From assembly GCA_017627595.1 (NCBI GenBank), contig JAGAGL010000018.1:3935-67934 (forward strand): a DNA stretch of 64,000 nucleotides. The letters run 5' to 3'. The notes beneath the pieces were generated by a model. That model saw only the letters and a program-made list of their open reading frames with translations, was not told where the DNA came from and did not search any database. Positions within the stretch are counted from its first letter, which is position 1. Each line of letters begins with the position of its first letter. Shown here piece after piece: positions 2,017-17,200 of this stretch. The DNA is from Oribacterium sp. (GTDB lineage: Bacteria; Bacillota; Clostridia; Lachnospirales; Lachnospiraceae). The translations under genes and the position numbers were made by a program.

Positions 2017-2835
2017 TCACATCAACGTATTCATCATCATAATAGCTTGTTCTTCCGGTGTGGGTTCACGGTCAGGAAGGGAGGACATCTTCTGCTTTGC
2101 TTCAGAAAGAAGTGCTTTCACCTTTTCCACTTCTCTTTCGTCGCAGGCATTTTCTTCAAGTCCTGCTTCCACCTCCTGAAGATCCTGTTCCAGCAAGGCG
2201 ATGATTGCCTGCATATCACCTCTGGTAGCAGCTGCTGCAATCTGTCTCCTTCGCTTTTGCTCGTTGACACTCACAGTTTTACTGGTAGATTCCGTTGTGA
2301 CTTCTCCATCATCGTCGATTTTTATCTTCATACTTTGGAAGCCTACTTCTCCCTGCTTTTCTTCAAGAGCTTCATCTGCTGCCTTTAAATTATCGAAAAG
2401 AGACTGGCGTTTGTCCGGATCCGTGAGGCAATCTCTCAGATATTTTGATGAGATTTCCGCCATACCCTGTTTTACAATGTTGTAGTTCTCATAAAGGTAT
2501 TTTGAAAGATCATCAACTGTCTCAAATATCAGATCTTTAGCTGTATCAGATGTCAGATCACCGACCGTGTCGAATGACGGATCTTTGTCCATATCAAATA
2601 TCGGATCGGATTTCGCATCATCTGCTTTCAGGTTTGCTTTTAAAGCTGTCCTACCCTGTTCGGAAATCTCCAGGGTATCCTTCTGGTTTAGCAATACTTC
2701 AACCACTGACTTTCCGGCTCTGTCTCCTATTTCTATATCTCGTCTGATTCCGGAGTTCTTTCCTCGTTTTATTATCTTTGGATTTACATTATTTCCGGAA
2801 TATTTTCCATATATATCATTAATCTCTACTGCCAT
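2017..2835 (-). CDS. DUF6033-like hypothetical protein, candidate flagellar-export substrate
   Basis: 272 aa, RBS AAGGAGG; no signal peptide or TM segment; FlgM-like DTLEISEQG motif; YL...ISSKYL..C..DP...IDDDGEV core. Confidence 0.6.
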   Translation of the reverse strand: MAVEINDIYGKYSGNNVNPKIIKRGKNSGIRRDIEIGDRAGKSVVEVLLNQKDTLEISEQGRTALKANLKADDAKSDPIFDMDKDPSFDTVGDLTSDTAKDLIFETVDDLSKYLYENYNIVKQGMAEISSKYLRDCLTDPDKRQSLFDNLKAADEALEEKQGEVGFQSMKIKIDDDGEVTTESTSKTVSVNEQKRRRQIAAAATRGDMQAIIALLEQDLQEVEAGLEENACDEREVEKVKALLSEAKQKMSSLPDREPTPEEQAIMMMNTLM

Positions 2836-2857
2836 TTCAAACCTCCTTCATCTAATC

Positions 2858-2923
2858 TTTACTTCGGAGGTCAGAAACCAGATATAATACAATTGCAGTG
2901 AACACCACTATTCTTGCAGTCAA
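2858..2923 (-). promoter_or_regulatory. LytTR direct repeat plus sigma-28-like -10
   Basis: Minus strand TTGACTGCA-N12-TTCACTGCA-N25-TCCGAAGTAAA upstream of 2835. Confidence 0.6.
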
Positions 2924-4593
2924 TTCCTTGTGCACTTATTATTCATCATAACTGTCAAACAAAACATCTGTCTTTCTCCTTTATTATAAATCTCAATGTC
3001 TACATCCCCCATATATTTTCTTGCGCATTTTTGAATATTCGACATCCCAATCCCATGCAAATGCTTATCCGTTTTACTCGTCACAGGAAGCCCGGTGTCC
3101 TTGTCAAAAGTTACCTGCCCGTCAAATACATTTTCAATCTCAATAAAATATAAGGTGCCTTTCATATAGGACTTAAGCGTGATTTCTCTTGCACCATCCA
3201 CCTTTCGGCAAGCTTCAAAGGCATTGTCCAAAGCATTATCCAGAATGACCGCAATATCGTAAATGTCTATACGTCCAGAGTTTGGAGCAACAAAACCTGC
3301 CTCTATTTGCCCGGAACCAGGCGTCATATAATCCGTCTTTATGTGCCCGAGGTCCGGCGCCACATGATCCGTATATTTGAGTCCAGCGTCTGGTGCTACA
3401 AAATCTACTTCGAAGGTTATTCCACTCCTCTTCGCTTCCTGCATCCTTTGGTAAATGATGATGTCCGTGATGGGATTTCCGCTTTTTGATGAAAAATCCA
3501 ATTTATTTACTGCATTCTCCAACTCGTCGAGGTAGCCATCTATCTCTGACACATCATTTCCGGTGTTCTTAACGTACAGCATGATATTGTTCAGGTGATT
3601 CCTCATATCATGCTTCAGTCCCCGCAGATCAGAATATATATTTTCAACATCTTTGATTTCCCTGTGAAGCTGCTCCACCTGTCTTTCAAGGATGGCCTGC
3701 TTCCGTCTCTCTTCATTACGCTCAATAAGATATTGAAACAGCATCATGGCGGCAATGATAGAGCCAAGAAGCAGAAAACAAATGACTATGATCCATATGA
3801 GAACCTCCGGAACCTTGTCGTAAATCAGCAGAGATAATCTTTCATTAATTTTCAGTATTATTACCCGCAAAGTCATGGACACCCCAAGTCCGGTAATGCA
3901 GGGGAGTATCAAAAATACACTCTCCCTAAGGCTTGGCTCATAGCCTTTGTGGATATATTTTCTGCTCAACACTTTCAGATATGTAAACATTAGCCCCACA
4001 TATATGGCTACGGAGACAAGGCTTTGAACGAAAAGATAGATGTTTAGAAACATATCCGCTTTCTCCATAGTCAGGTTTTCGGATTGGAGAACCATGCTCT
4101 CAAACATGCTCCAGGTGGCGTGTGAGATCAGGTAATAACCGACACTTCCGATATTTCTGATCAACTCTTTTCCGGCGGTAAAGCTTATGGCGGCAAATAT
4201 CTGCCTTTTGAAATCTTGCTCAAAGAATATGAGCTCAAGTATGCCCAGTAAAGCAAGATCCATCATAGTTCGGAGCATGACCGTTTGGGTTTCTGCCAAT
4301 TTATACAGTACAGATTCTGACGAAAGATATATGATTATCCAGAGAATAAGCATTAGCCTCCCGGGGTGTTTCGGTTTAAGGGGTCCCGAGCCCTTTAGTT
4401 CGTCATCTTCCGATGACGGAAGCTTGACGTTTTTGCTTATTATCTGTTTCATACCGGGAGAAATCCAGGGCTCTCGGTAACGGAAGTAAGTATTGTATCT
4501 CGGTTTCAGAATCGCAGCTCCGTACAGCCAGCTGAAAACTGCGTCTGCCATATATATCGGCAGTGTCAAGGTAACAGACATGATATCAAACAT
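2920..4593 (-). CDS. Membrane GHKL (AgrC/VirS-like) sensor histidine kinase
   Basis: Multi-TM N-terminus; H-box LKHDMRNHL; N-box ILDNALDNAFEA; G-box HGIGMSNI. Confidence 0.93.
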   Translation of the reverse strand: MFDIMSVTLTLPIYMADAVFSWLYGAAILKPRYNTYFRYREPWISPGMKQIISKNVKLPSSEDDELKGSGPLKPKHPGRLMLILWIIIYLSSESVLYKLAETQTVMLRTMMDLALLGILELIFFEQDFKRQIFAAISFTAGKELIRNIGSVGYYLISHATWSMFESMVLQSENLTMEKADMFLNIYLFVQSLVSVAIYVGLMFTYLKVLSRKYIHKGYEPSLRESVFLILPCITGLGVSMTLRVIILKINERLSLLIYDKVPEVLIWIIVICFLLLGSIIAAMMLFQYLIERNEERRKQAILERQVEQLHREIKDVENIYSDLRGLKHDMRNHLNNIMLYVKNTGNDVSEIDGYLDELENAVNKLDFSSKSGNPITDIIIYQRMQEAKRSGITFEVDFVAPDAGLKYTDHVAPDLGHIKTDYMTPGSGQIEAGFVAPNSGRIDIYDIAVILDNALDNAFEACRKVDGAREITLKSYMKGTLYFIEIENVFDGQVTFDKDTGLPVTSKTDKHLHGIGMSNIQKCARKYMGDVDIEIYNKGERQMFCLTVMMNNKCTRN

Positions 4594-5374
4594 TCACGAT
4601 ACCTCCATTTTTGGCGTAACGAAGATACGCTTTTACGAAATCCGTATACTTCTTCTCAGCAAGAATAATGCTTTCGCCGTTAAGCACCCGGATACTGTTA
4701 ACGGAATAGGCCGTTACCTTTTCAAAATTCACAATATAACATCTGTGACACCTAAAGAAAGTATCACCCAATTCCTTTTCAAGATCGTACATTCTGGCAT
4801 AGGTCTCTGCGAGTCCACTGTCTGTATGGAAAACCACCTTCCTGTCATTGCTTTCGATATACTGAATCTCGGAAAACAGGATTTTTTTCCTATTCTCCCC
4901 ATCCTTAATGATCACGTATTTTTTTCTCTGCTCGTCAGAAAAGCGAGCTTCTTTAAGCGCCCGTTGAAACACCTCCGCAAACTTGCTTTCCTTAATCGGC
5001 TTCACAAGATAATGAAAAGCATTTACATCAAAGGCTTCTTCCATATACTCCCGATAGGCTGTCACAAATATGATGACGCTTTGGTTTCCGGGGTCTGACT
5101 GCCTTTCGCGGATACATTTCTCTAAATCTGCCTGTCCCTCGCGTATACTGTTTCCCGGATATTCTTGCCTCTTTCGAATACGCTTCGCAAGCTCTATCCC
5201 GGATATATCTCCCATTTCAATATCAAGAAAATAAATATCGAAAGAATCTCCACAAGAAATCAGATCCTCGCTTCTATTAAAGCAGCTAATTTTTGCATCT
5301 CTATGTTGCTTCTTTATCAGATCAGATAATTGTTTACTGATGTTAATGTCATCATCGCATACAGCTATATTCAT
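4586..5374 (-). CDS. LytTR family response regulator
   Basis: REC domain (IAVCDDD, FLDIEM, FVTA, VKP) plus LytTR domain (FFRCHRCYIVN); overlaps kinase start. Confidence 0.95.
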   Translation of the reverse strand: MNIAVCDDDINISKQLSDLIKKQHRDAKISCFNRSEDLISCGDSFDIYFLDIEMGDISGIELAKRIRKRQEYPGNSIREGQADLEKCIRERQSDPGNQSVIIFVTAYREYMEEAFDVNAFHYLVKPIKESKFAEVFQRALKEARFSDEQRKKYVIIKDGENRKKILFSEIQYIESNDRKVVFHTDSGLAETYARMYDLEKELGDTFFRCHRCYIVNFEKVTAYSVNSIRVLNGESIILAEKKYTDFVKAYLRYAKNGGIVNV

Positions 5375-5407
5375 TTCCGGATTCCTTTCATCATTAAATG
5401 AACTATT

Positions 5408-5474
5408 ATTATATAGCCATAAAATGTTCTACTTTTCATTATTATGTAGTGAACTACGGGATTTTTGCGGTGAA
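5408..5474 (-). promoter_or_regulatory. LytTR direct repeat plus sigma-A -10 (autoregulated promoter)
   Basis: Minus strand TTCACCGCA-N12-TTCACTACA-N31-TATAAT. Confidence 0.6.
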
Positions 5475-5490
5475 ATATACGTTTGAACAG

Positions 5491-5533
5491 AAAAACCGCA
5501 GCTATCTGCTTGTACAGATAACTGCGGTTCTTT
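5491..5533. terminator. Intrinsic terminator
   Basis: AACCGCAGCTATCTG-cttgta-CAGATAACTGCGGTT hairpin flanked by A/T runs. Confidence 0.75.
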
Positions 5534-5674
5534 ACTCATATATTTTTCTCCCGATAATTAAATGACCCAACGTGGTCCGCATCGTTGAGAGGCGTGTTGG
5601 GTTCTGTTGATGTCAGTATATTCCATAACCGATACGTTAATCAAGTTTTTTAATACTTGATGTATGCATTCTAT

Positions 5675-5956
5675 TCACCTGAGCTTACTCTCATAATCCT
5701 TCATCAAATCCTCTATTACATCATCTGCATCTCGTCCCTGACCTGCTTTTGCCTGTGTCAGTGAATGATCGATATGATTCCATAGCTTTTCATCTGTTTT
5801 TTTCCCTAATGGGCTATGCCATTTTTCCCGTGCGGCTGTAAGCTCCACAATAACTGAGTGAATTGCCCTTAGTTGGCTCTCGTCTAATGATTTTAGCAAA
5901 TCAACGGTATCATCGTATATTGACTGTGCTTGTAAAGTCATATCGAATACCTCCAT
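5675..5956 (-). CDS. Small hypothetical protein, possibly an orphan type II antitoxin
   Basis: 93 aa acidic protein; C-terminal SLTQAKAGQGRDADDVIEDL resembles antitoxins that precede RelE/ParE toxins; no toxin ORF follows. Confidence 0.45.
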   Translation of the reverse strand: MEVFDMTLQAQSIYDDTVDLLKSLDESQLRAIHSVIVELTAAREKWHSPLGKKTDEKLWNHIDHSLTQAKAGQGRDADDVIEDLMKDYESKLR

Positions 5957-6211
5957 AACAAATAATAAGCACTATGATAAAAAGGGGATTTACCCCGGAA
6001 CACAGAACACCTCGTCTGTTACTCTATATTGTAGCACCAGAGGCCTTTCCTGCTCAAGAAACCCAGCGTTATCAATTATTAAGCTTTGCTAAACAAACGT
6101 TCACGATATCAACAAAAGGGATATGACTCTACCGAAGCATTTAACCCCTTTTTAAACCAATTCTTAGGATTGAGTGTTCACTGTCAGCCATGAATATAGG
6201 CGATCTGTTAA

Positions 6212-6394
6212 TCAGATGCCGCAGCGAATGCAGCTATCATTCACGGAATACGACAGAGCGGTATCCTTGCGCAGCCACTTATCCGCCAGCCTCTTGCGAT
6301 ACATAGCCATCTGGGCTTTCGTGAATGCCGTGATCTTTACGTCCACAGTCTTCCGGGCAGCAATGTCTCTGCACACGGTTTCCCATCTGCTTTC
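6212..6394 (-). pseudogene. Fragment of an EFR1-like flavodoxin/4Fe-4S protein
   Basis: Manual translation in frame after the marR stop ends ...YSVNDSCIRCGI*; a CxxCxxC motif cut by TGA at the third Cys; no start codon. Confidence 0.5.
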
Positions 6395-6853
6395 TTAAGC
6401 TTCCTGTCCCATCGCTGCCAGTGCGCGGGTCAGCAGATCACGAAGAAGTACCATGTCCTCTTCCGCAAGAGGAATACAGCCTTTCATGACTTCCGGGATC
6501 ATCACGGCTTTTTCTTTCATAGCTTCGCCTTCTTCGGTAAGCGTCAGGAACAGCTTGCGCTCATTATTATCCGGTCGGATACGGTTGACCAGGCCCTGTT
6601 TTTCGAGACGCTTCAGAAGAGGAGCCAGGGTTCCTGAATCCAGATGTACCCGCTTGCCGAGCTCGCCTTCCGTCATGCCTCCGTTTTCCCACAGGACCAT
6701 CATGACCACATACTGGGTATAGGTAAGGCCAATCTCATCAAGAGGTTTTCTGTACTGCCGAACAACCTCTTTTGCGCAGGCATACAGGGGGAAGCACAGC
6801 TGGTTATCCAGCCGGATGCAGTCATACTTATCTATGGCTCGTGAATTCTCCAT
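6395..6853 (-). CDS. MarR family regulator, OhrR-like
   Basis: LDNQLCFPLYA (redox Cys), LTYTQY, LDSGTLAPLLKRLE motifs. Confidence 0.88.
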   Translation of the reverse strand: MENSRAIDKYDCIRLDNQLCFPLYACAKEVVRQYRKPLDEIGLTYTQYVVMMVLWENGGMTEGELGKRVHLDSGTLAPLLKRLEKQGLVNRIRPDNNERKLFLTLTEEGEAMKEKAVMIPEVMKGCIPLAEEDMVLLRDLLTRALAAMGQEA

Positions 6854-7245
6854 TACAGATACTTCCTTGCAAAATCGGCTGCTGCCTTAAGCTGTGCATC
6901 GTTGGGCTTATTTTTTACGTAGAAAGACTCAGAGACGACGGAAATCCCTGCTTCAGACAAAGCCTTTTTGATCAGATCTATGGAATGCTTCGATATCCAG
7001 GAAGTAGCGAAGACAACTGCCTGCTTCGCATCGTCTTTCTTCAGGGTTTTCAGGTAGTCTTTCAAGTGGCTGTCAAGGCCGTAAGCATATAAAGCTCCGC
7101 CGATGAAAAGCACATCCACAGGCTCTGTGATCGCCGCATCCGAAGCATCTACCGAGATTGCGGATACACCGGCGGCTTCAGCGATTGCTTCGGCCACAGC
7201 TTTGGTATTGCCTGACCTTGAATAATATCTTACTGCTGCTCTCAT
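6853..7245 (-). CDS. Flavodoxin family protein
   Basis: FMN phosphate loop YYSRSGNTKAVAEAI. Confidence 0.85.
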   Translation of the reverse strand: MRAAVRYYSRSGNTKAVAEAIAEAAGVSAISVDASDAAITEPVDVLFIGGALYAYGLDSHLKDYLKTLKKDDAKQAVVFATSWISKHSIDLIKKALSEAGISVVSESFYVKNKPNDAQLKAAADFARKYL

Positions 7246-7323
7246 TTAAGCTTCCTCCATTTTACAAAAGGCTGACGCCGCTTCACAGAGAACGTCAGCC
7301 TTTAAGCTTGGTTTACTACGTAA

Positions 7324-7815
7324 TTAGAGTCCCAGAAGCTCAGTCCAGAGTTTTACTTCTTCTTCCGAGCCTTCTGCACCGAGTCTCTTGCCGTCGCAGA
7401 CAGTCACACTCTCACCGACAATGCCCTTGATATGCTCTACGGATTTTTCGACACCGCTCATGCCGGAAGTGCAGAACGGGATGATCTTTTTACCGCTGAA
7501 ATCATAGGCATCCAGGAAGGTGTCGATGATACTCGGCTCGCGGCCCCACCAGATCGGGAAGCCAACAAACACCGTATCATAATCGGCCATGTTCTCGACG
7601 CATCCGCTGATCGCGGGGCGGCAGGACTCGTCAGCCATTTCCACATTGCTGCGGGAGGTCTTTACCGTATAGTCCAGATCCTCTTTTGTATAAGGCTTTT
7701 CAGGCTTGATCTCATAGCAATCCGCGCACTCAGCCTTTGCAAGTTCGGCAGCAACCTTTGCGGTAACGCCGCTGGCGGAAAAATAAGCGACTAAAATCTT
7801 GCTCATAGCAGTCAT
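7324..7815 (-). CDS. Flavodoxin (Flavodoxin_4-like)
   Basis: YFSASGVT, GFPIWW, PFCTSGMS motifs. Confidence 0.88.
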   Translation of the reverse strand: MTAMSKILVAYFSASGVTAKVAAELAKAECADCYEIKPEKPYTKEDLDYTVKTSRSNVEMADESCRPAISGCVENMADYDTVFVGFPIWWGREPSIIDTFLDAYDFSGKKIIPFCTSGMSGVEKSVEHIKGIVGESVTVCDGKRLGAEGSEEEVKLWTELLGL

Positions 7816-7833
7816 TTCCTTTCTTGGACTTAA

Positions 7834-8280
7834 TTAGCCCAGTTGCTCGATCAGGTAGTTCTCGTATCCGATCTCTTCGATCAGGTTCAGATGCTGGCGA
7901 ACCCAGTTGAAGTGCTCCTGCTCGTCAACGATGAACTGCTGGATCATGTTCTTCGTTACATAATCGTCATCAAACAGGGCCAGAGACTTGCTCATCTCGG
8001 GGAGTGCCTGAGCGCTGTCCTTGCAGTCATACTCCAGCATTTCCTTGATATCCGTTATAACAGGGTACTCCTGAATAGCGACCACAGGGGTCTCGCCAAG
8101 CTCGATCAGTCTGGCATTAACCTTCTTTGCCTCTTCCCATTCTTCGTCGGACTCAGCCATGATCTTGTCGCCGAGCTTGCCGAAGCCTCTCTGCTTCAGC
8201 AGCTGTGCGTGAATGGAATGCTGCTGAGAATTACCGAACCAGCCCTTCGCAAATTCCTTTAAGAGTTCAACCTTTGTCAT
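7834..8280 (-). CDS. Bacterioferritin / ferritin-like diiron protein
   Basis: DEQEH motif, ARLIELGETP, IGYENYL; start at ATG 8280 with RBS GGAGGT. Confidence 0.8.
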   Translation of the reverse strand: MTKVELLKEFAKGWFGNSQQHSIHAQLLKQRGFGKLGDKIMAESDEEWEEAKKVNARLIELGETPVVAIQEYPVITDIKEMLEYDCKDSAQALPEMSKSLALFDDDYVTKNMIQQFIVDEQEHFNWVRQHLNLIEEIGYENYLIEQLG

Positions 8281-8306
8281 CGTAGATACCTCCGTCGTTA
8301 TTATCG

Positions 8307-8334
8307 TTATTGTGCGCTGTCTTATTGTGCGCAA
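8307..8334. promoter_or_regulatory. Candidate OhrR/MarR operator
   Basis: TTATTGTGCGC direct repeat (8307, 8322); second copy is near-palindromic TTGTGCGCAA; upstream of the ferritin-flavodoxin-marR cassette. Confidence 0.4.
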
Positions 8335-8419
8335 CTACTATTATTATTTTACACACATAGGAGGCTCTATCAATTCAGAATGTCTTTATATTTTCTCATT
8401 GTGAGAAAATATACCCTGA

Positions 8420-9031
8420 TCATCTCATTTTCAGAAGAGATATTGATGAAGGAGCTCGGGCAGCGCCTTTCCGCTCTGCTTTTTCTTTTTTCTTTTCCGC
8501 AACCTTTTCTTCTGCTTTTTTCTTTTCTACCTTTTGCTGCCGGAGTTTAGTTCCAAATTCATTCGGTGATGTTATCTTTGAACGTCTGTCATCATGCTTA
8601 CTTATTGACCAACAGCTAATGCCTCCGTCCTTATCTATGGCCCATCCCCGGGCAACAAGCGTAGCACCACTTCCCTCTATTCTTTGTCGTGCTTGTTCAT
8701 CCAGTACTTCACTAAGCTTTTCATCTGCAAAAGGTTTCACAAGAAAATGAAATGGATGCAGATCAAATGAACTAAACACCTGACTTTCTTCACCGGTTAC
8801 AAAGATCAGTATCTTTCTCCAATCTCTGTCTCTCAATGTCTTTGCCACATCCAATCCGCTCATCTCAGGCATCCAGATATCAAGTAATAGAATATCCGGG
8901 AGTTTATCGGCAGCCAATAGCTCTTCTCCGGAAGTGAATGTAATAATCTCTGCCTCCGGACAGATTTTTGCAACTTTCTCAGCAAGTATGTCACATATTC
9001 TTTTTTCATCATCACAAATAGCAATTCTCAT
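8420..9031 (-). pseudogene. Deletion chimera: LytTR-type REC domain fused to a DUF6033-like C-terminus
   Basis: aa 1-111 REC (IAICDDE, LLDIWM, LVKP); no LytTR domain; then GWAIDKDGGISCWS and a K/E-rich tail. Confidence 0.65.
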
Positions 9032-9113
9032 GTCTGTCTCCGATCAACTCCGGCCGGCACAGATCAGACATCCACCGGATATCTTACGCCCTCCCGAAAA
9101 GCATACTATTTAT

Positions 9114-9180
9114 ATATTATCTACTATAAACCGATATAGTCATCTGCCAATGTAGTAAATGGTTGATTTTCTGCAGTGAA
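9114..9180 (-). promoter_or_regulatory. LytTR direct repeat plus sigma-A -10
   Basis: Minus strand TTCACTGCA-N12-TTTACTACA-N31-TAATAT, same spacing as at 5408-5474. Confidence 0.55.
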
Positions 9181-9209
9181 CGGTAAGTTCATTGGTTTTC
9201 CCAAAGAAA

Positions 9210-9241
9210 AAACCCCGGAAACACATCAGTTTCCGGGGTTT
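9210..9241. terminator. Hairpin homologous to the terminator after rpsI
   Basis: AAACCCCGGAAAC-acatca-GTTTCCGGGGTTT; compare 21063-21096. Confidence 0.75.
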
Positions 9242-9266
9242 GTGAATTCTTTTCGATTCTTCGAAG

Positions 9267-9303
9267 ATTATCTCTTTGAGAGCGCTGATTAACGCTTTGA
9301 GAA
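9267..9303 (-). repeat. att site(s): two tandem copies of the rpsI 3' end
   Basis: ATTATCTCTTTGAGA (9267-9281) is identical to 21133-21147; TTAACGCTTTGAGAA (9289-9303) also encodes FSKR* on the minus strand. Confidence 0.85.
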
Positions 9304-9408
9304 TTTCCGGACAGCCATAAAAGCAACACTTCCATCAAGAAAAATGGCTTAAAATAAGGCTTTTTAGTGCTCTTACTACGGAAACAGAAACTGTTGTAAA
9401 TATCATTT

Positions 9409-9430
9409 TGTATCTTACCTGTGTCTTACG
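9409..9430 (+). repeat. Integrase arm-type repeats (left end)
   Basis: TGTATCTTACC-TGTGTCTTACG; the same 11-mer occurs x3 at 20967-20999. Confidence 0.6.
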
Positions 9431-9469
9431 GTGGACGTCCCAGGACTGCTAAGGACTACAGGTAAGATA

Positions 9470-9498
9470 TTGAACGACAGCCAAGAATCTGTTATAAT
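9470..9498 (+). promoter_or_regulatory. sigma-A promoter of small toxin gene
   Basis: TTGAAC-N17-TATAAT with extended -10 TG. Confidence 0.7.
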
Positions 9499-9612
9499 GC
9501 CGGACGGTGCTACCAGTACCCACGGTAGGCGGTTAGTCCTTTTCCAGAGGACTGTGACCTCTGTTTATCATAGAAATCTCGAAAGAGAAATCTCAAATGG
9601 AGGAACTTGCTT

Positions 9613-9714
9613 ATGCTGACCATAACTGATCTCATGACTGTTCTTGCACTTTGTGCGACTTTTTATAGTCTTGGATACATGCATGGTAAGCGTGATTCCA
9701 AGACACAAAAGTAA
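9613..9714 (+). CDS. Small hydrophobic peptide, putative type I toxin
   Basis: MLTITDLMTVLALCATFYSLGYMHGKRDSKTQK* (33 aa), RBS GGAGG at 9599; one hydrophobic helix plus basic tail; below the ORF-track cutoff. Confidence 0.7.
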   Translation: MLTITDLMTVLALCATFYSLGYMHGKRDSKTQK

Positions 9715-9802
9715 CCGCCCGAGCCTAGGAAACTTGTGAGCGGTTACTAATCGTTTTACAATATCCAGGGCTAACCGTCTACCGGTAGCACCTTTTTCTT
9801 AC
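9705..9802 (-). ncRNA. Putative antisense antitoxin RNA
   Basis: Convergent promoter TTGACT-N17-TAATAT (9837-9809); terminator hairpin AGTAACCGC/GCGGTTACT plus TTTT at the toxin stop; ends approximate. Confidence 0.55.
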
Positions 9803-10007
9803 ACTTAGATATTAACACCTTTCTCTCAATCAGTCAAATAACGCTTAATAGCTTCTTATTAAAATTTAAACCAACAATATCGTTCATTAAGTCTTTTGTT
9901 GCTTCTCACGAAAAAATATTCTTCTCGTGATATCATATATTTAATATCCTTTGTATTTCTCCCAAAATCCGAGGATATATTTTAAGCAATATACCTTAGT
10001 AAAACTC

Positions 10008-10520
10008 TCATATCTTAACTGCATGTCTTTTTCTGTATTCTTCATTATCCTTCCTTGAGAGTTCTGCGTCTACCTGCTTTAGCTCCTTTTCAATTTTATT
10101 TCTCCGGGATTCATCAGCAGTACGTAGTTCCTGCTCTAGGCTAGTTTTTTTAGCTTTCAGCTTTTCTATCTCCCTGTCTACCTTATCTGTACTTAAAGTT
10201 GTAGTCTCGCTGGTTTCTGTTTCTTTCGGAGCCTCTGGTGCTTTTCCCGACTTTGGTGCTCCAGATTTATGGTTTTCTGGCAAATCTGCCTTCTTATCTT
10301 CCTCATTTTCCTTATCGGGTTTCATAACATTTTTTGCATAATCCGATGGAATATACTCATCATAATTCTTAGGATATTCCGCACCTGTAACTGGTTTATC
10401 TGGCTTTTCGTCATCTTTCTGATTTTTGGGTTTCACATCGTCGGTCTTTTGTGCCCTGATATATCTCTCCTGTTCAGGTAGTGTGTTCATACCAACTGCA
10501 TTAACCTTCATAGCATTCAC
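10008..10520 (-). CDS. Hypothetical protein with FlxA-like coiled-coil C-terminus
   Basis: 170 aa; disordered N-terminus, YDEYIPS motif, TDKVDREIEKLK...ELSRKDNEEYRKRHA; no signal peptide. Confidence 0.65.
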   Translation of the reverse strand: MNAMKVNAVGMNTLPEQERYIRAQKTDDVKPKNQKDDEKPDKPVTGAEYPKNYDEYIPSDYAKNVMKPDKENEEDKKADLPENHKSGAPKSGKAPEAPKETETSETTTLSTDKVDREIEKLKAKKTSLEQELRTADESRRNKIEKELKQVDAELSRKDNEEYRKRHAVKI

Positions 10521-10621
10521 ACCTCTCTTTCAAGTTTCTGTAATATTCAAATTCAGTTCTAGCTAATCGAATATTTGCATTTTTAACTTTAATAAAATAT
10601 TAGATACTTTATTTCTCAATT

Positions 10622-10687
10622 TTTACATCGGATTAATGATCATGCTAATAACCCATATGTAACGAAAGGTCAATTCTATGTATCAGA
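10622..10687 (-). promoter_or_regulatory. LytTR direct repeat plus sigma-28-like -10
   Basis: Minus strand TCTGATACA-N12-TTCGTTACA-N25-TCCGATGTAAA. Confidence 0.55.
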
Positions 10688-12193
10688 AGGACATCTTTTT
10701 TTTAGCATAACTGTTATCTTAAATTTATTTCCATCCTCCGTTATCCTCATAATGCCACCATATCGCTTAGCTATATCAGCCACATTTTTAAGTCCTATTC
10801 CATGCCAAAAATCATCCGTGTTTCTTTCCTCATGTATTGATTTATCAAAGCCATTTTCGCAAACAATAAGGACAAAGTTTTCCTTATCCACTGCTTTGAT
10901 ACTAACGTATTTTAATTCTTCTGCTGATATTTCTGCTGCATTTATAGCATTATCCAAAATGTTGGATAACACTACGGATAAATCGTACACTGCTATTCCC
11001 CATGACTCATCAAAAGAAAAAACCGGCGAAAACAGAATTCCTTTTTCTTTTGCCTTCCGGTATTTATCATTTATGACAACATCTGTGACAGGATTTCCTG
11101 TATAATATCTCATTTCTACAGATTGAATAGTATGATCTATTTCCGAGATATATTGGTTTATATCTATCAGAAGTCCATGTTCAGCAAGTCCCTTAAGTGT
11201 GGTCAAATGATTGGCCATTTCATGGCGTACCTTCCTGACCTGTTCATAATACCGTTCAGTATCCTCCAGCCTCCTTTGTATTGACTCCTTTTCAACATTT
11301 CCGGCAAACACCATTTCGCTCTTCTGCCTGTACAGATTATATTTTTTCCATATAATTACCGCACACAATTCCCCAAGATACAAAAATAGAGCAATTGCCG
11401 GCATAAGAAAAACCAGATAAGGGTACATATCCAACAATACAATATCTCCGTCAGCAATTTTAAATACTGCAATACCGAGCATTATCCTGGTCAATATTAT
11501 TCCGGCAATGTTCATTACTGAAAGATAGCAAAGCTCGGTACAGCTCATTTTTTCATATTGCTGTACGCTTTTTACAAAAGGTAGTATTTCAATAAAAAGC
11601 ACGAGACAATACAATGCTTCTGCCACAAAGAAAAGAATTCCTACTGTTGATATAGGATTTACATCCGTATCTCTTCCTAGTTCATAACCCGTCATCACTC
11701 TTTTTATAAACTCATTCATGAATGAATTAACAAAAAACCACGAAAGATATCGTAAATTAAGATACAAAACAAGCGAAAAGATGGTCTCTTTAAGATATTC
11801 TCTTTTGCATACAACCATAAATAATAATGTTATGCCTGATAAAACAATGATTTCAAAAGGCCATCCGTCCTCATTAATAAACCAACGAACTATTTCAATG
11901 AAAGAAATCAAAACAAAAAGATTAATAGGAACACTCAGATTGGTTGTTTTCGTTGCTAATGAATTTGTATTAATGCCATAATCACTTTTATTAAACAATG
12001 CTTTTACAGGGCTCTTCCCTATAAAAGCCGGCTCCATCAACGAATCTGTACGAAATCTTTCTTTACGGAAACTACCGGAACACAATGGCACAAAAGAATT
12101 CCAAAGTATTATAAAAATGAACGCCCTCCAAATAATTCCTGTGATTTGTGACGCCGCATACAATAAATCTACTTTTACATCCGTACTCAGCAT
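10676..12193 (-). CDS. Membrane GHKL sensor histidine kinase
   Basis: Multi-TM; VRHEMANHL, LSNILDNAINAA, HGIGLKNV. Confidence 0.93.
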   Translation of the reverse strand: MLSTDVKVDLLYAASQITGIIWRAFIFIILWNSFVPLCSGSFRKERFRTDSLMEPAFIGKSPVKALFNKSDYGINTNSLATKTTNLSVPINLFVLISFIEIVRWFINEDGWPFEIIVLSGITLLFMVVCKREYLKETIFSLVLYLNLRYLSWFFVNSFMNEFIKRVMTGYELGRDTDVNPISTVGILFFVAEALYCLVLFIEILPFVKSVQQYEKMSCTELCYLSVMNIAGIILTRIMLGIAVFKIADGDIVLLDMYPYLVFLMPAIALFLYLGELCAVIIWKKYNLYRQKSEMVFAGNVEKESIQRRLEDTERYYEQVRKVRHEMANHLTTLKGLAEHGLLIDINQYISEIDHTIQSVEMRYYTGNPVTDVVINDKYRKAKEKGILFSPVFSFDESWGIAVYDLSVVLSNILDNAINAAEISAEELKYVSIKAVDKENFVLIVCENGFDKSIHEERNTDDFWHGIGLKNVADIAKRYGGIMRITEDGNKFKITVMLKKRCPSDT

Positions 12194-12927
12194 ATTTCAC
12201 TCTCCAAAAAGGCTACATACCCGTCCACAAAATATTTGTACTTATATTTGGACAATGGTATGAGGTCACCGGTGATTATTCTAATATCCTTCCTTGTATA
12301 ATCAGAAATGTATCTCATATTAACAATAAAGCTTCTATGTACCAATATAAAGTTCTTATCAAGCTTACTCTTAACATCATCCAATTTCCCATATATCTCA
12401 AAAACTGTGTTTGCTAAATGAATGATCAGCTTTCTTCCTATACTTTCTATATAGACAATGTCCGATAAGTTAATTGGTCGTGTTATCCCACATGAATTAA
12501 CAGTCAAATACCTTGGTTTACTTTTCTCTAATGTTTGCAAAACAGCTTTCCGTACCTGCTCAAACACAAACATAAAATGCTTCTCCTCTATTGGTTTAAC
12601 TATAAATTGGAATGCTCTCACTCCAAAGGCTTCCGGCATACGTTCCGGTAATCCAGTAATAAAAATAATAAACGGTGTCTCAGAAGCTCCTCTGCCTTCT
12701 TCTATGTATTTTCTCTTTAGCTTTTCCGCAACTTCCATTCCATCCATTGAGCAGTTTAAATCTATATCCAGATATAGAACATCCAAGCTTCCACCCTGCC
12801 TATAATATCCGAGAACTTCTTCTCCGTTCTTAAAATGCTTTATGGTGCTGTGCTCATCGATATTTCTAACAGACCGATCAATAGTGTCTCTTATACTCTT
12901 TTCATCATCACATATTCCAATAACCAT
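12187..12927 (-). CDS. LytTR family response regulator
   Basis: REC (IGICDDE, YLDIDL, VKP) plus LytTR (FILVHRSFIVN). Confidence 0.94.
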   Translation of the reverse strand: MVIGICDDEKSIRDTIDRSVRNIDEHSTIKHFKNGEEVLGYYRQGGSLDVLYLDIDLNCSMDGMEVAEKLKRKYIEEGRGASETPFIIFITGLPERMPEAFGVRAFQFIVKPIEEKHFMFVFEQVRKAVLQTLEKSKPRYLTVNSCGITRPINLSDIVYIESIGRKLIIHLANTVFEIYGKLDDVKSKLDKNFILVHRSFIVNMRYISDYTRKDIRIITGDLIPLSKYKYKYFVDGYVAFLESEIC

Positions 12928-12983: not shown

Positions 12984-13010
12984 ATATCGGCTATACAGTA
13001 AAGAAATTAA
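12984..13010 (-). promoter_or_regulatory. sigma-28 (SigD/FliA)-type promoter
   Basis: TTAA-N15-GCCGATAT versus SigD consensus TAAA-N15-GCCGATAT. Confidence 0.6.
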
Positions 13011-13136: not shown

Positions 13137-14651
13137 TTATAACTCTATCATATCAACTGTACTTCTTTTGAAATTGAAATGGAGCTGTTCTTTCTTTTGG
13201 TCGTTTACTAACCTCTGCTTTTCTGCCAGCTGTTTCAGAACACTTGTCTTTTTACCTTCGGTTTGTTCTTTGTTCTCAGGAATCGTAACTCCGTCCCACT
13301 CAGCCTGTGCCCTTTTGATATCATCCAACTCTTTCTTTGCTGTTCTGTATACATTTTCGGCTTCCTGTACACTGTTATATCCGCTCAGTTTAGGAATTGC
13401 TTCCATCTGATTTCTCGTAAGCTCTATTTGTCTCTCTAATCCTTCAATGCTCTCACTCAGGGCTTTCCTGTCTTTTCTGTTAAAGAAGGACTTTTTCATT
13501 CCATCCAATGCCTTTTGTAATGTTTGTTTCTTTTTCTGAAGAGCATAGAGTTTACGATTACACTTAGTCAGTTTTTCATGAATCGGCTTAATCTTTAAGA
13601 AATTCATCTCTGCTAGGTGTGAATCCGGTCTTGGTTCCATTTTATTCTTATCAGACAGATCAAAATTTACATCTATCGATTCCTCCCCTTTAACCTGTTC
13701 AGATTCATACTCATTCATGAGCATATCAAGAAACCTTTTCAAAACTGCAATTGCTTTTATCAAAAGATCAGCAAATAGCCCCGGTGCATAGCCATTATCT
13801 TTAACAGAAGTCGCGACCTTATCTACCACTTCTTCCCTTTTAAATTCTGTTACCTCTTCATGACTTCCACCTGCAATCAACACCTGATCAACTGTTTGAT
13901 TCCACTCTTTTCTAAGTTCATTATCATGCCTTATATCTGCTTCCCGCGGATTATGCTTCCCAATTTTCTTTGTAGGAAGATACGGTCCTGCATCATCAAA
14001 CACTTCTAGCATATCTTCATTCCTGTCAACACATTGATTGATAAGATCCGTATATCTCGCCTTTATTTCCGTCAGAAAGCTTTTCTTTTTAAAAATATCC
14101 TTTCTACCGGAGAACCATTTGATCTCATATAGGTCTCCTTTTCCTATAATCCTGCATCCCGGCCTTATATTTCCATTCTCATCCAGGATTTCTTTTTTCG
14201 TCCGGACATGTCTTCTCTCTTCGTTGTAAAACATATTCCTTGTGGCATATTTCATTTCCGTTTTGTCTACTACTTCTCTATCTGCAAATACTAGATGAAT
14301 ATGATAGTTTGTCATTGCCTTATTATGATGAAGAGCCGCGCTGCAATGCACCCCATAATATGTTCTCATGGTTTCCGTAAATAGTTTGAGTAACAGTTCC
14401 GGATCTTTACTTTGAAGTTCTTCCGGCAAAGCTATGATCAGCTCCCTTCCTTCTATACACTTTCCTGTTTTTTGATTGCTCCTCCAGAAATCATATTGTG
14501 ACTGTTCTGATAGGCGCTGCCAGAATTCAGGCTTAGCAACTGTACTGTAAGTCGCATATAGATGTTCCTGTCTCTTGGGATTACTAATATAGTCGATGCG
14601 CCCCTGGATGTCGGTCAGTTTTGTCATTCTTATAAATGAATGCCTCGGCAT
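13137..14651 (-). CDS. MobA/MobL (MOBQ-like) relaxase
   Basis: Likely start MPRHSF (RBS GGAGGTG); IDYIS catalytic Tyr, GRELIIALP, ALHHN...NYHIHLVF HUH motif; coiled-coil tail. Confidence 0.85.
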   Translation of the reverse strand: MPRHSFIRMTKLTDIQGRIDYISNPKRQEHLYATYSTVAKPEFWQRLSEQSQYDFWRSNQKTGKCIEGRELIIALPEELQSKDPELLLKLFTETMRTYYGVHCSAALHHNKAMTNYHIHLVFADREVVDKTEMKYATRNMFYNEERRHVRTKKEILDENGNIRPGCRIIGKGDLYEIKWFSGRKDIFKKKSFLTEIKARYTDLINQCVDRNEDMLEVFDDAGPYLPTKKIGKHNPREADIRHDNELRKEWNQTVDQVLIAGGSHEEVTEFKREEVVDKVATSVKDNGYAPGLFADLLIKAIAVLKRFLDMLMNEYESEQVKGEESIDVNFDLSDKNKMEPRPDSHLAEMNFLKIKPIHEKLTKCNRKLYALQKKKQTLQKALDGMKKSFFNRKDRKALSESIEGLERQIELTRNQMEAIPKLSGYNSVQEAENVYRTAKKELDDIKRAQAEWDGVTIPENKEQTEGKKTSVLKQLAEKQRLVNDQKKEQLHFNFKRSTVDMIEL

Positions 14652-14685
14652 ATCACCACCTCCTCTCGCATTGCGAGCCCCCGGA

Positions 14686-14740
14686 GGGCGAAATTCCCTT
14701 TGAATAAACCGTAGGTTTGTGCAAAGGGAGTATTTCGCTC
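14686..14740. other. Candidate oriT
   Basis: Nested inverted repeats (GCGAAATTCCCTTTG / CAAAGGGAGTATTTCGC around AAACCGTAGGTTT) directly upstream of the relaxase. Confidence 0.4.
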
Positions 14741-14880
14741 TCAATCGCCGAGGGCTTAATCTGTTGTCTTTGTATCGGGTTTTTAATTATTTTTTTCTTA
14801 TTTCCAATTGCCATTTTTCTTTTTTGTCCGTTCCCGGACCCCGTTTTCTTTAGATTTTTTGTTTTTTCTTTTACCGATCG

Positions 14881-14946
14881 TCGGTGGTAATGGTGGTACA
14901 GTGGTGATCCTCAGATTTTAGGATTTACCACCATACTCCACCACCG
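14881..14946. repeat. GGTGGT/ACCACC inverted iteron-like cluster, candidate replication origin
   Basis: Several GTGGT units followed by CCACC units in an AT-rich spacer just downstream of VapE. Confidence 0.35.
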
Positions 14947-14993
14947 AGCTCAAAACTTTTTAAATTTTCCCTTGTCCTAAGCTTCTATTTATC

Positions 14994-16367
14994 TCACTGT
15001 AAGAATGGAATCTCCGATGGATTTGATACAGGTACAAACCCTTCATCAGGTTGTGCCTTACCGCTTCCAGCCTCCGGTTCCCATGCCTTTTGCGATCCGT
15101 ACTCCCCAAACTTCCTGCTTCCTATGTCTTGCCATCCCATGCTTCTGAGTATTTCAGTGATCTTCTTGGACATCCAATTTGGCATTTCCTCTGTGATGCA
15201 GTGTCCAAATACCTTACAGTAGATTTCCTTCACGCAAGTTCGTTTCAATCCCATGGTTTCTAAATAGTTCTCTACCAGGCCAAGTTCTGTATCTTCCGGC
15301 ATGAACTCCTTCTGCATCTCCTGGGCGTATTCCTCCATCTCTTTACTGAAAGTCAGTTTGAAGTTACCTTCCCTATACATAACCATTGCTTCTGCCCACA
15401 TCTGATGGAAATATTCTCTTGAAGCTTTTTCATCCGAGAGAATATGCTGCTCTGCCAGAGCCGGATTGACAGATACCGGAGCAAATCTACGATTACCTGT
15501 CCTATCGAAGGGAAGAAACTGCATATCATTTGAGGTACCGCAGAAAACCACCTGACGGTCATGATGTTCAGGGTGCTTGGCATATGGCGTTCGAAATGTT
15601 TCACACTGCCTTGTTATGAAAGACTTCATATCTTCAAGGCTTTTCGCTCTTACCAATGCTCCCATTTCCCCAAGCTCTACAATCCAATGTCCGTTCATTT
15701 TTTCAAAAACTTTTGGATCATCAATCTTATGTAAATCATCAGTGAACCACTGATCCTTAATTGCCAGGAATCTGAAAAACGTTGATTTACCACACCCTTG
15801 TGAACCTACCAGACAAAGTGCTATGTCATACTTACAGCCTGGTTCATAAACCCTGCTTATAGCTGCCAACATATGCATTGTCATAACTTCCTCCGTATAT
15901 CTATCTACCGGTGCTCCGAGAAAATGATTCAAAGCGTATTTTATTCTCGGAATCCCATCCCATACCAATGACTCCAACAGTTCCCGGATTGGATGAAATC
16001 TATGCTCATTCGCAACAATTGAGATTGCCGTTTCCACCTTTTCCTTTGAAGTGAGACCATAATTTCGTTCCAAGTAGAGTCTGATGTTCATTTCATCCGT
16101 GTCCATAATTGGATTTCCCTGTCTTTTCCAAGGCATATCCTTTGTGATTTCGATTCTGCAGTTCAACTCATTTCTGCATATTGCCCCTTTCATCACCGGA
16201 TCATGTTCAAGAACAAATACGCAGTTATCCAGTGTCTGACGGACTTTGCCATCCTCGTTTTTTTCAAGAGCTTCCTTTACAGCTTCCACGGTGAAAGCCT
16301 CCTCTTTCAGATCACGCTCCAATTCTTTCAGTTCTGTGTCGCTCATTGTCTCTAGTTCTTTGTTCAA
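14994..16367 (-). CDS. Virulence-associated E (VapE) P-loop ATPase/helicase
   Basis: FHPIRE, WDGIPR, Walker A GSQGCGKST, WIVELGEM, DRTGNRRF. Confidence 0.9.
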   Translation of the reverse strand: MNKELETMSDTELKELERDLKEEAFTVEAVKEALEKNEDGKVRQTLDNCVFVLEHDPVMKGAICRNELNCRIEITKDMPWKRQGNPIMDTDEMNIRLYLERNYGLTSKEKVETAISIVANEHRFHPIRELLESLVWDGIPRIKYALNHFLGAPVDRYTEEVMTMHMLAAISRVYEPGCKYDIALCLVGSQGCGKSTFFRFLAIKDQWFTDDLHKIDDPKVFEKMNGHWIVELGEMGALVRAKSLEDMKSFITRQCETFRTPYAKHPEHHDRQVVFCGTSNDMQFLPFDRTGNRRFAPVSVNPALAEQHILSDEKASREYFHQMWAEAMVMYREGNFKLTFSKEMEEYAQEMQKEFMPEDTELGLVENYLETMGLKRTCVKEIYCKVFGHCITEEMPNWMSKKITEILRSMGWQDIGSRKFGEYGSQKAWEPEAGSGKAQPDEGFVPVSNPSEIPFLQ

Positions 16368-16373
16368 TACGCT

Positions 16374-16961: not shown

Positions 16962-16984
16962 TTGTCTCCTCCTATAATGTATTT

Positions 16985-17200
16985 GTGGTGGTTAGATACC
17001 TCTCCGCCAGAAAGGACTAACCGTTCCGTTGCTAAAGCTGTTAGAATAGGTGGGCATTGGTATGACGACAGTTTCCTTGGACCTATAAGCGTCCGTCAGA
17101 AAGCCCGTCAGCCAGCCCTCCATTCGCAGCCGTTCGGTTTATGCAGGTTGGACTGCCTTTTTGTATGTCCGCATGATACCCCAGGAGATTGAATCAGCAA
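16985..17200 (+). ncRNA. Putative IS110 bridge RNA
   Basis: Two internal loops, each closed by a GGAC/GTCC stem, matching the reconstituted target and donor junctions; ends approximate. Confidence 0.6.

Follow-up and report, generated by a model that had tools for sequence, protein, structure and literature searches.

LytTR-GHKL modules of flagellated Clostridia as a possible signal-gated, sigma-28-coupled output of soluble proteins

Introduction

In agr circuits, the AgrA/AgrC pair occurs with AgrB and AgrD, and the LytTR regulator and multi-membrane GHKL kinase form an autoactivating system. Integrative mobilisable elements that insert at rpsI carry a tyrosine integrase, a relaxase and att repeats derived from the rpsI 3' end, and they accrete in tandem. 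According to the available portions of the papers cited here, LytTR Regulatory Systems (HdrRM, BrsRM) have 9-bp direct repeats 12 bp apart, placed 4-11 bp upstream of the -35 element, and are autoregulated (PMC6193735); the Campylobacter jejuni Feds, FspA, FlaC and CiaI, which the flagellum secretes although they are non-flagellar, are linked both to sigma-28 and to the export apparatus of the flagellum (PMC5223770); and E. coli flxA (PF14282) is FliA-dependent (PMC4183435) and is carried by the Qin prophage (PMC11237407).

The locus analyzed here combines features of all these systems. With agr it shares a LytTR regulator with a receiver domain, a multi-membrane GHKL kinase, period-21 repeats and predicted autoactivation; however, no AgrB was found, the regulators score 37-45 bits against an NCBIfam AgrA cut-off of 400, the target promoter is mostly sigma-28-like, and the cargo-linked kinases stand apart from AgrB-linked kinases among the rows listed of a quick tree. 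The repeat geometry and the predicted autoregulation resemble those of LytTR Regulatory Systems, although HdrRM and BrsRM, as far as their description covers this, pair the regulator with a membrane inhibitor instead of a kinase and use promoters of the sigma-A type. Because the regulators here have receiver domains and a GHKL kinase as partner, assignment of the modules to that class was rejected; they also differ from it by a soluble third gene. Features expected of flagellum-exported non-flagellar proteins of the C. jejuni type (sigma-28 promoter, no Sec or membrane segment, disordered N-terminus) recur here, the first at the sequence level and the second by a hydropathy test, whereas export is predicted rather than established, the genes are carried by mobile cassettes of Clostridia and of Selenomonas-like loci, many unrelated families are involved, and a dedicated LytTR/GHKL pair would add a further gate. 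Like flxA, the third genes are sigma-28-dependent (here by prediction), borne by mobile elements and functionally uncharacterised; unlike them, flxA has no two-component partner reported in the relevant parts of PMC4183435 and PMC11237407. Finally, the integrase, relaxase, rpsI-derived att repeats and tandem accretion are common to the rpsI-integrating elements, from which this locus differs in its cargo, apparently a regulatory-secretory module.

Our literature searches returned no description of this system, and full-text searches for DUF6033, DUF3879 and DUF4885 had no match; exoproteome supplements for Roseburia, Butyrivibrio and Selenomonas could list such proteins as hypotheticals.

Results and Discussion

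Organization of the locus

The window (the whole 64,000-nucleotide stretch of Oribacterium sp. DNA that was analyzed) contains, near rpsI, two intact LytTR-GHKL-third-gene modules and one remnant of a 2.7-kb deletion (Table 1); the Lachnospiraceae host is flagellated. The initial annotation placed the order regulator-kinase-soluble gene at 5374-2017 and 12927-10008, and both the coordinates and the order are confirmed, with the domains recognized by Pfam; HK1 has an invariant His328-Asp329. It also recognized a collapsed third copy at 9031-8420, correctly: this is a receiver/DUF6033 fusion, of which three related genomes (G284, G297, G286) hold the intact version with a regulator of 234 aa, a kinase of 458-485 aa and a DUF6033 protein of 276 aa. 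Compared to G284, 2,729 bp are missing from the window, and the junction lies at a short common motif (8697-8707).

Table 1. Features of the module region, with predicted regulatory sites
Feature	Position	Strand	Details
T1 cargo, soluble	2017..2835	-	Disordered N-terminus, DUF6033-like core (about 104-185), three-helix C-terminal bundle (model)
Predicted sigma-28-like promoter of T1	2861..2887	-	TTAT-N15-TCCGAAGT
Period-21 direct repeats, predicted RR1 boxes	2893..2923 (2914-2923, 2893-2902)	-	At HK1 stop
HK1	2920..4593	-	AgrC-like multi-membrane GHKL histidine kinase, PF14501 E 8e-22; 5 hydropathy segments
RR1	4586..5374	-	Receiver + LytTR response regulator, PF00072 + PF04397
Period-21 repeats upstream of RR1, predicted autoregulation	5444..5474	-	Promoter behind repeats weakly sigma-A-like
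Collapsed module 3	8420..9031	-	RR3 receiver in in-frame fusion with mid-part of DUF6033 gene (T3); 3' end replaced too
Period-21 repeats upstream of RR3	9150..9180	-	Followed by sigma-A-like candidates
attL-like 15-bp copy of rpsI 3' end	9267..9281	.	Sequence match
T2 cargo, soluble	10008..10520	-	Low-complexity N-terminus, conserved C-terminal helical region, no Pfam family
T2 period-21 repeats (10680-10690, 10659-10669) and predicted sigma-28-like promoter (10625-10651)	10625..10690	-	TTAT-N15-TCCGATGT
HK2	10676..12193	-	AgrC-like GHKL histidine kinase, PF14501 E 3e-18; 6 hydropathy segments
RR2	12187..12927	-	Receiver + LytTR response regulator
Predicted near-consensus sigma-28 promoter upstream of RR2	12984..13010	-	TTAA-N15-GCCGATAT; kept in G284, G297 despite differing flanks
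Integrative mobilisable element backbone carrying module 2	13137..20894	.	MobA/MobL relaxase, VapE-like ATPase, CHC2 zinc finger, IS110, HTH regulator, tyrosine integrase
attR-like site at rpsI 3' end (rpsI = 21134-21526)	21133..21147	.	Sequence match

The module had been described as repeated three times. The gene order does occur thrice, but the modules are not copies of one unit: pairwise identity is 30-32% among regulators and 25-29% among kinases, which rules out recent duplication, and T2 is not significantly similar to either T1 or T3. For the same reason, the idea of a mobile, self-amplifying unit survives only in its first half. The window has an integrase, a relaxase and att repeats that derive from the 3' end of rpsI, and the sequence context suggests that the modules accumulate as cargo of rpsI-integrating elements. 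The rpsI site also gathers Wadjet, Abi and toxin-antitoxin genes.

Linkage of the third genes to kinase-regulator pairs

The proposed linkage of the third genes to two-component pairs is consistent, if incomplete. A GHKL kinase gene lies directly upstream in 40/69 assessable T2 loci, preceded in 33 of these 40 by a LytTR gene, and 24 of the 69 have no GHKL gene within 3 kb upstream; for T1, a kinase is found within 1.6 kb in 18 of the 22 assessable loci. Among the best 30 DUF6033 loci there was no GHKL gene within about 1.5 kb, and 11/40 further DUF6033 loci had one. Viewed from the kinases, cargo-like genes follow GHKL genes in 8/40 cases in flhA-positive versus 0/40 in flhA-negative genomes; it should be noted that the eight calls come from five genomes, three having been made by eye and five by profile (p = 0.055 for the profile-based calls alone).

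A mobile hot spot at rpsI that simply gathered functionally unlinked genes would account for the company of Wadjet, Abi and toxin-antitoxin genes at the same site. We regard such a coincidence as very improbable: the same gene order turns up in several families and in different genomic settings, and module-specific repeats stand at a fixed distance from a promoter.

Period-21 repeats and sigma-28-like promoters

Direct repeats with a period of about 21 lie just upstream of the -35 element, the geometry of LytTR targets. A match of at least 9/11 at lag 21 was found in 28/61 cargo junctions, compared to a mean of 0.3 at other lags; 33/61 cargo junctions fall below this level, and 8/67 control junctions reach it. 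A repeat-anchored sigma-28-like promoter, by a rule fixed only after the lag-21 result had been seen, was detected in 15/24 distinct junctions (0.9 expected) versus 0/22 controls, and a repeat-anchored sigma-A-like promoter in 5/24. Sigma-28-like promoters are found at the sequence level in all three modules, and the sigma-28 motif precedes 20/29 stand-alone DUF6033 genes (1.9 expected); a generic sigma-70 scan was non-discriminating (36 found versus 29.5 expected). The promoter variants resemble mapped FliA promoters in the available part of PMC4183435 and the Butyrivibrio consensus quoted in that of PMC3720852. Thus, the sigma-28-type promoters anticipated for the third genes are predicted at most of the repeat-bearing junctions.

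The repeats also point to control of each third gene by its own pair, as had been proposed. Cargo boxes match the upstream region of their own regulator at 16.4/22 positions and those of other regulators at 13.4/22, a value as high being reached in 0/20,000 permutations; for example, the T1 boxes find their best match, among the regulator upstream regions of 21 modules, in that of RR1. In 5/21 modules, the own region scores at or below the average of the other regions. By analogy with described LytTR regulators, we infer that the phosphorylated regulator binds these repeats. The predicted arrangement, a LytTR activator working at sigma-28 promoters, was not found in the literature searched.

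Restriction to flagellated genomes

In the samples searched, the third genes occur exclusively in flagellated genomes, as the initial annotation had expected. In a balanced sample of Lachnospiraceae, DUF6033 occurs in 56/106 flhA-positive and 0/94 flhA-negative genomes, and T2 in 14/106 and 0/94; in a second family (balanced sample, centre genome left out), T2 occurs in 7/43 and 0/157. The Fisher values for these co-occurrences overstate the association because related genomes are not independent. Among the hosts of T2 loci, 72/76 have flhA and two of the other four have flagellin, and all 24 hosts classed as sigma-A-type still have flhA. GHKL kinases, used as a control, show no such restriction (present in 13/15 flhA-negative genomes).

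Cargo families and protein features

Profile comparisons suggest that T1 and T3 are DUF6033-like and that T2 belongs to a separate coiled-coil family. The T3 fragment in the window scores 25.3 bits against DUF6033 (PF19498; cut-off 25) and its intact orthologue 78 bits. T1 has no Pfam match, but hhalign relates it remotely to the DUF6033 alignment (95.7%, E 9.6e-9), and Atlas places it with DUF6033 clusters at 0.91-0.93. T2 likewise lacks a Pfam match; its Atlas look-alike cluster (score 0.92) has 25% FlxA members, hhalign of T2 to one FlxA cargo protein gave no match, and PF14282 matches none of T1, T2 and T3. NCBIfam named no cargo protein above cut-off. Fold searches with the T1 model (best Z 8.7, rmsd 1.3, 62 aligned) and the intact-T3 model (best Z 6.5, rmsd 24.3, 126 aligned) returned only generic helical-bundle or coiled-coil matches, and Foldseek with these two models, as opposed to the DUF6033 core alone, gave no match at E 0.001 or better. 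Arrays behind the kinases also include FlxA, FliD-like, DUF3879 and DUF4885 proteins, with one true PF14282 member and one FliD_C-matching protein among the cargo. The cargo is therefore drawn from an exchangeable pool of DUF6033, T1, T2, DUF3879, DUF4885, FlxA, FliD-like and other proteins.

The absence of signal peptides and the disordered N-termini noted earlier were both recovered. A simple hydropathy test (not SignalP) finds no signal-like or transmembrane segment in T1 and T2, nor in any of the 107 cargo proteins (0/107), and AlphaFold pLDDT is below 50 for residues 1-57 of T1 and 1-59 of the intact T3 of G284. Two DUF6033 cargo proteins share the N-terminus of T1, although their cores resemble that of T1 only remotely. 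A C-terminal hydrophobic-D/N-x-x-hydrophobic motif is present in 56/107 cargo proteins versus 14/466 controls; N-terminal composition statistics are partly circular, because several cargo families were chosen by their look.

FlgM holds sigma-28 in check until flagellar export, and ExsE-type regulators do likewise for injectisomes. A comparable checkpoint, in which cargo retained in the cell inhibits the kinase, the regulator or the sigma factor and is then removed by flagellar export, would fit the DTLEISEQG reported for T1 and found there, a D-x-L-E-I-S motif which we take to be FlgM-like and which is followed by a low-confidence helix in the model. FlgM was also not detected in this genome, although its absence means little because the genome is only 88% complete. 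A co-encoded inhibitor is used by LytTR regulatory systems, in the part of PMC6193735 available. Nevertheless, the FlgM-type motif (D-x-x-x-I-S; D-x-V/L-x-I/L-S in the initial annotation) does not generalize, being present in only 3/107 cargo proteins, and unrelated families swap freely behind one kinase type, contrary to a dedicated inhibitor. Since no PF04316 match was found in T1, T2 or the other cargo scanned, an identity of the cargo as FlgM anti-sigma factors was rejected; of the family candidates suggested for profile searches, DUF6033 held for T3, and FlgM failed for T1 and T2. We consider a checkpoint improbable.

Export or cytoplasmic function

On balance, we lean towards the reading that the modules provide a sigma-28-coupled output under signal control, consisting of proteins that the flagellum likely exports. 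An AgrC/AgrA-like pair on a mobile cassette would switch on its own operon and the downstream gene for a cargo protein without a signal peptide, whose promoter would mostly require the flagellar sigma factor too. If sigma-28 reads this promoter, the cargo would depend on an external signal as well as on a completed export gate. The protein would then leave through the flagellar type III system, with the disordered N-terminus as a putative export signal; its most likely role would be that of an accessory secreted protein, acting extracellularly or on the filament. Flagellar export is suggested by the 0/107 signal or transmembrane segments, the predicted disordered N-termini, the FliD_C and FlxA members of the pool, the N-terminus that T1 shares with two DUF6033 cargo proteins, and the flhA genes in all 24 sigma-A-type hosts.

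Flagellar co-occurrence and a sigma-28 promoter suit a cytoplasmic motility protein equally well. With the same regulation and no export, the cargo could modulate flagellar assembly or motor output from the cytoplasm or while bound to the basal body, a reading to which we assign a minor, though appreciable, chance. This would account for the flhA restriction and the sigma-28 promoters; long charged coiled coils are suited to protein binding, and E. coli has FliA-dependent genes, flxA among them, with no obvious flagellar role in the account given in PMC4183435. It does not readily explain a polar disordered N-terminus together with the C-terminal motif (56/107 versus 14/466) across unrelated families, or the FliD-like protein in the pool and the freely swapped multi-family arrays.

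If export is true, motile gut and rumen Clostridia own a large, unannotated flagellar secretome of many families, mobile and released only on a signal, with consequences for how abundant commensals interact with hosts and microbes. Without export, the modules still give a first functional context for DUF6033, DUF3879, DUF4885 and FlxA-like proteins, and the exact operator and promoter sites (Table 1) make the claim directly testable.

The cargo as a proposed ligand of its kinase

The initial annotation proposed a circuit without AgrB or a peptide ABC exporter, and this description was borne out: AgrB (PF04647) was not found in the window, in this genome (88% complete) or in the intact modules of relatives, and the sole ABC transporter identified in the window is of the ECF/CbiQ type. 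Small ATG open reading frames between 5300 and 13200, examined by eye, include no recognizable AgrD-type propeptide. It further proposed that the third gene product may serve as a ligand or kin label. In such a loop, the exported cargo would act on its own kinase as a ligand, in the manner of a protein pheromone or kin label, with the flagellum taking the place of AgrB or the ABC exporter. The absence of AgrB is compatible with this, as is predicted positive autoregulation, which a quorum circuit needs; the pairing of HK1-like kinases with T1-type genes extends from Oribacterium-like loci to Selenomonas-like ones, and sensor domains diverge faster than kinase cores.

Conversely, in a quick tree of 141/149 kinases (eight without downstream sequence were left out; clades as they appear in the rows listed), T2 stands behind at least three distinct kinase lineages, and in the clade of 22 rows that includes HK1 and HK2, the first downstream genes are T1, T2, DUF6033, FlxA-type and others (at least five families). 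The closest HK1 relatives (L062, L142, L148) lack the T1 C-terminal bundle, and many cargo genes are solitary, without a kinase. Among close relatives, cargo cores are 95-98% identical versus 80-97% for sensors, the opposite of what is expected of a variable label. Selenomonas has an outer membrane, which would shield an inner-membrane sensor from a protein of 370-400 aa. The complex prediction for HK1 with T1 residues 97-272 (score 0.00) counts neither for nor against. Given the exchange of cargo between kinase clades and its higher conservation compared to the sensors, the ligand loop and kin recognition are disfavoured and appear unlikely to us, and the kinase signal is probably not the cargo. 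Equally doubtful is the broader form, a protein-pheromone version of agr in gut and rumen Clostridia, in which a flagellar-exported protein or fragment would activate the kinase and so drive further proteins secreted by the flagellum, a mobile and exchangeable set expressed from sigma-28 promoters under LytTR activation.

Distribution

In public sequencing runs, matches were found as contigs only, with small shares in the RNA runs, and so carry no information about expression or habitat. DUF6033 is rare outside Lachnospiraceae (4/300 genomes across the phylum).

Modules and their linkage to cargo genes

Modules composed of a LytTR response regulator (RR), a GHKL histidine kinase (HK) and a third, cargo gene (T) are a real, widespread feature. 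The genes of modules 1 to 3 lie where the initial annotation had placed them, as borne out by open reading frames and domain matches, and its reading of module 3 as a collapsed copy is correct: this module is whole in three genomes of the genus (RR, 234 aa; HK, 458-485 aa; DUF6033 protein, 276 aa), and 2,729 bp are missing from the window relative to one of them (G284), with the join at 8697-8707. The genome holding the window (G000) encodes flhA, fliA and a flagellin; neither AgrB nor FlgM was found in this assembly, which is 88% complete. HK1 and RR1 contain short tandem-duplication insertions that differ among close relatives.

Features of the window
Feature	Position	Strand	Remark
RR1	4586-5374		REC+LytTR
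HK1	2920-4593		GHKL kinase
T1	2017-2835		
RR2	12187-12927		REC+LytTR
HK2	10676-12193		GHKL kinase
T2	10008-10520		
Collapsed module 3	8420-9031		receiver domain fused to DUF6033 fragment
rpsI 3'-end copies, 15 bp (attL/attR-like)	9267-9281 and 21133-21147		flank module 2, relaxase, VapE-like gene and integrase
Wadjet jetA, DUF4194/MksE-type neighbour	34-1665		part of rpsI hot spot
MarR, two flavodoxins, ferritin-like gene	6395-8334	-	higher GC; insert separating modules 1 and 3
Antitoxin-like orphan gene	5675-5956	-	no intact ParE-family partner ORF in window
Hydrophobic ORF, 33 aa, basic tail	9613-9714	+	just inside attL

The linkage of third genes to LytTR/GHKL pairs, as proposed initially, held for most T2 and T1 loci and for a minority of DUF6033 loci. 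GTDB yielded at least 492 T2 relatives, and of the top 80 taken from these, 69 had enough upstream sequence; a GHKL gene was directly upstream in 40 of these, with LytTR ahead of the kinase in 33 of the 40, was within 3 kb in 45/69, and was absent in 24/69. For T1, 22 of 44 metagenome loci were assessable, and 18 of them had a GHKL gene within 1.6 kb. DUF6033 is mostly stand-alone: no GHKL gene was found within about 1.5 kb at the 30 best loci, and 11 of 40 further loci had one within 4.5 kb.

The structure model of T1 combines a three-helix bundle and an alpha/beta core with a disordered N-terminus; the core is distantly homologous to DUF6033 (hhalign 95.7%; Atlas agrees). The nearest named T1 homologues are Oribacterium proteins, and many homologues, Selenomonas proteins included, are DUF6033-T1 fusions. 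T2 is a family apart, with a conserved C-terminal helical region; its placement by Atlas near a cluster with 25% FlxA members is a lead only to kinship with FlxA. The kinases are followed by arrays of one to about five cargo-type genes. Besides DUF3879 and DUF4885 genes, these arrays contain a genuine member of FlxA (E 7e-13) and a gene matching FliD_C (E 3e-7). At Selenomonas-like loci (L273, L277, L281, L282, L283, L285, L286, L288, L289), an antisense ORF of ~190-240 aa, its N-terminus hydrophobic in most cases, lies between the kinase and the DUF6033-T1 fusion; no family was named for the two scanned.

Association with flagella

Across 200 Lachnospiraceae genomes (one per genus, at least 90% complete; 106 with and 94 without flhA, the flagellation marker), DUF6033 was present in 56/106 flhA+ versus 0/94 flhA- genomes, and T2 in 14/106 versus 0/94; in this sample, in line with the initial annotation, neither family was found without flhA. 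A second family, that of G233 (an Oscillospiraceae record), had T2 in 7/43 versus 0/157 genomes, a count that leaves out the centre genome. Hosts of T2 loci encode flhA in 72 of 76 cases, and flagellin in two more. Within the genus, flhA occurs in 9/9 genomes with clear module matches versus 29/50 overall, although these nine may be one clade. Because kin genomes are not independent, the co-occurrence is a strong pattern rather than an exact probability. Kinase matches are not tied to flagella (53 in 15 flhA- genomes, 88 in 15 flhA+ genomes). Among the 40 best kinases of each class, cargo-like genes followed none from flhA- genomes versus eight from flhA+ genomes (five by profile, three by eye; five genomes; four loci too short downstream).

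Promoters and repeats

A lag-21 repeat with at least 9 of 11 matches occurs in 28/61 kinase-cargo junctions, compared to 0.3 at other lags and 8/67 control junctions. Mapped LytTR operators have this same layout, 9 bp + 12 bp, and lie 4-11 bp ahead of the -35 element (PMC6193735). In 24 distinct junctions (repeat at least 8/11), and with a promoter rule fixed after the lag-21 result was known, a fixed-distance sigma-28-like promoter was found in 15 (0.9 expected; controls 0/22) and a sigma-A-like one in 5 (0.4 expected; controls 1/22). All three modules of the window have the repeats and a sigma-28-like promoter ahead of the third gene (T3 taken from relatives), and a near-consensus sigma-28 promoter precedes RR2. 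The variant -10 elements are similar to those of mapped FliA promoters in E. coli (PMC4183435) and to the Butyrivibrio consensus as quoted in PMC3720852. Cargo boxes match the upstream region of their own regulator at 16.4 of 22, versus 13.4 for those of other modules; the own-regulator match is above the mean in 16/21 modules and ranks first in 10/21. Stand-alone DUF6033 genes have sigma-28 motifs in 20/29 cases (1.9 expected) and repeats in 3/29. The modules would thereby place sigma-28-regulon genes under an additional LytTR gate. Stand-alone DUF6033 (L005-L034), usually single-copy, with sigma-28 promoters and a G-x-x-[FI]-D-x-x ending, probably belongs to the core of the sigma-28 regulon in Lachnospiraceae.

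Proposed export and the ligand question

No membrane or signal-like segment was seen in any of the 107 non-redundant cargo-family proteins, of which 56 carry a hydrophobic-D/N-x-x-hydrophobic C-terminal motif, versus 14/466 soluble neighbours; the set includes 51 DUF6033 proteins, many stand-alone, and several minor families picked by eye. The first 26-47 residues are common to T1, T3 and the cargo on contig C49 of G000. Hosts with sigma-A-type cargo promoters (24, classed by eye, three of which carry sigma-28-type modules too) have flhA in 24/24 and fliA in 23/24 cases; since all have flhA, this suggests that the cargo proteins themselves need the flagellum. Non-flagellar, sigma-28-dependent proteins of C. 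jejuni that exit via the flagellum are a precedent (PMC5223770), and E. coli flxA is FliA-dependent (PMC4183435) and prophage-borne (PMC11237407). On balance, export of the cargo through the flagellum is slightly favoured.

That the cargo is also the ligand of its own kinase, with which the retention of T1-type partners by HK1-like kinases in Selenomonas-like loci is consistent, appears improbable: in a quick tree built from 141 kinase domains, T2 sits behind three lineages and at least five cargo families stand behind the clade of HK1 and HK2. In close relatives, identity is 95-98% for the cores of T1 and T2 and 80-97% for the sensor regions, and the core exceeds the sensor also at distance (T1 in G293, 83% versus 55%; T2 in L036, 61% versus 50%). 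Cargo-linked kinases form at least three groups in this tree, separate from AgrB-linked kinases.

The LytTR/GHKL pair, the sigma-28 regulon and rpsI elements are known kinds. A full-text literature search, covering article texts, found no description of such modules; within the literature covered, nothing describes these known parts joined in the proposed mobile, module-specific, signal-gated cassette for a flagellum-dependent protein pool.

Mobility and genomic setting

The modules had been proposed to be mobile and self-amplifying. Mobility is supported by the rpsI copies, relaxase and integrase around module 2, and by module 1, which is carried by an integrase-bearing element in G298 and G285 and directly adjoins rpsI in G299. 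Self-amplification is not: identity is only 30-32% among the three regulators and 25-29% among the kinases. Given this low identity, the rpsI copies (three of 15 bp in G284) and the element-borne module 1, we therefore infer that modules pile up through tandem insertion of mobilisable elements.

The rpsI hot spot is a defence-island setting. Abi_2, ToxN and PIN/MazE genes also occur there in relatives (L004:3154-3813; L247, L249, L253). The 33-aa ORF, with no informative family match in searches, resembles a type I toxin-antitoxin toxin. The ParE-family partner of the antitoxin-like gene is intact in G286 and is a single ORF reading through into RR1 in G284 (loci compared, L249:6604-6924 and L247:6168-7334). 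The MarR/flavodoxin/ferritin-like insert is absent at the corresponding place in G284, G297 and G286.

Elsewhere in G000, cargo-family genes lie on C104 (335-3054) and C135 (1016-1810), contigs with no LytTR/GHKL pair. A fourth module, LytTR-GHKL-DUF6033-DUF3879 (L001, C49, 2106-8734), adjoins a serine recombinase and a MobA relaxase, has near-identical repeats and sigma-28-like promoters ahead of both regulator and cargo, and is followed, past a transposase, by a 378-aa cargo-like gene. A further LytTR-GHKL pair (L002, C40, 3153-7531) precedes a VanZ-like gene and a DUF4885 gene.
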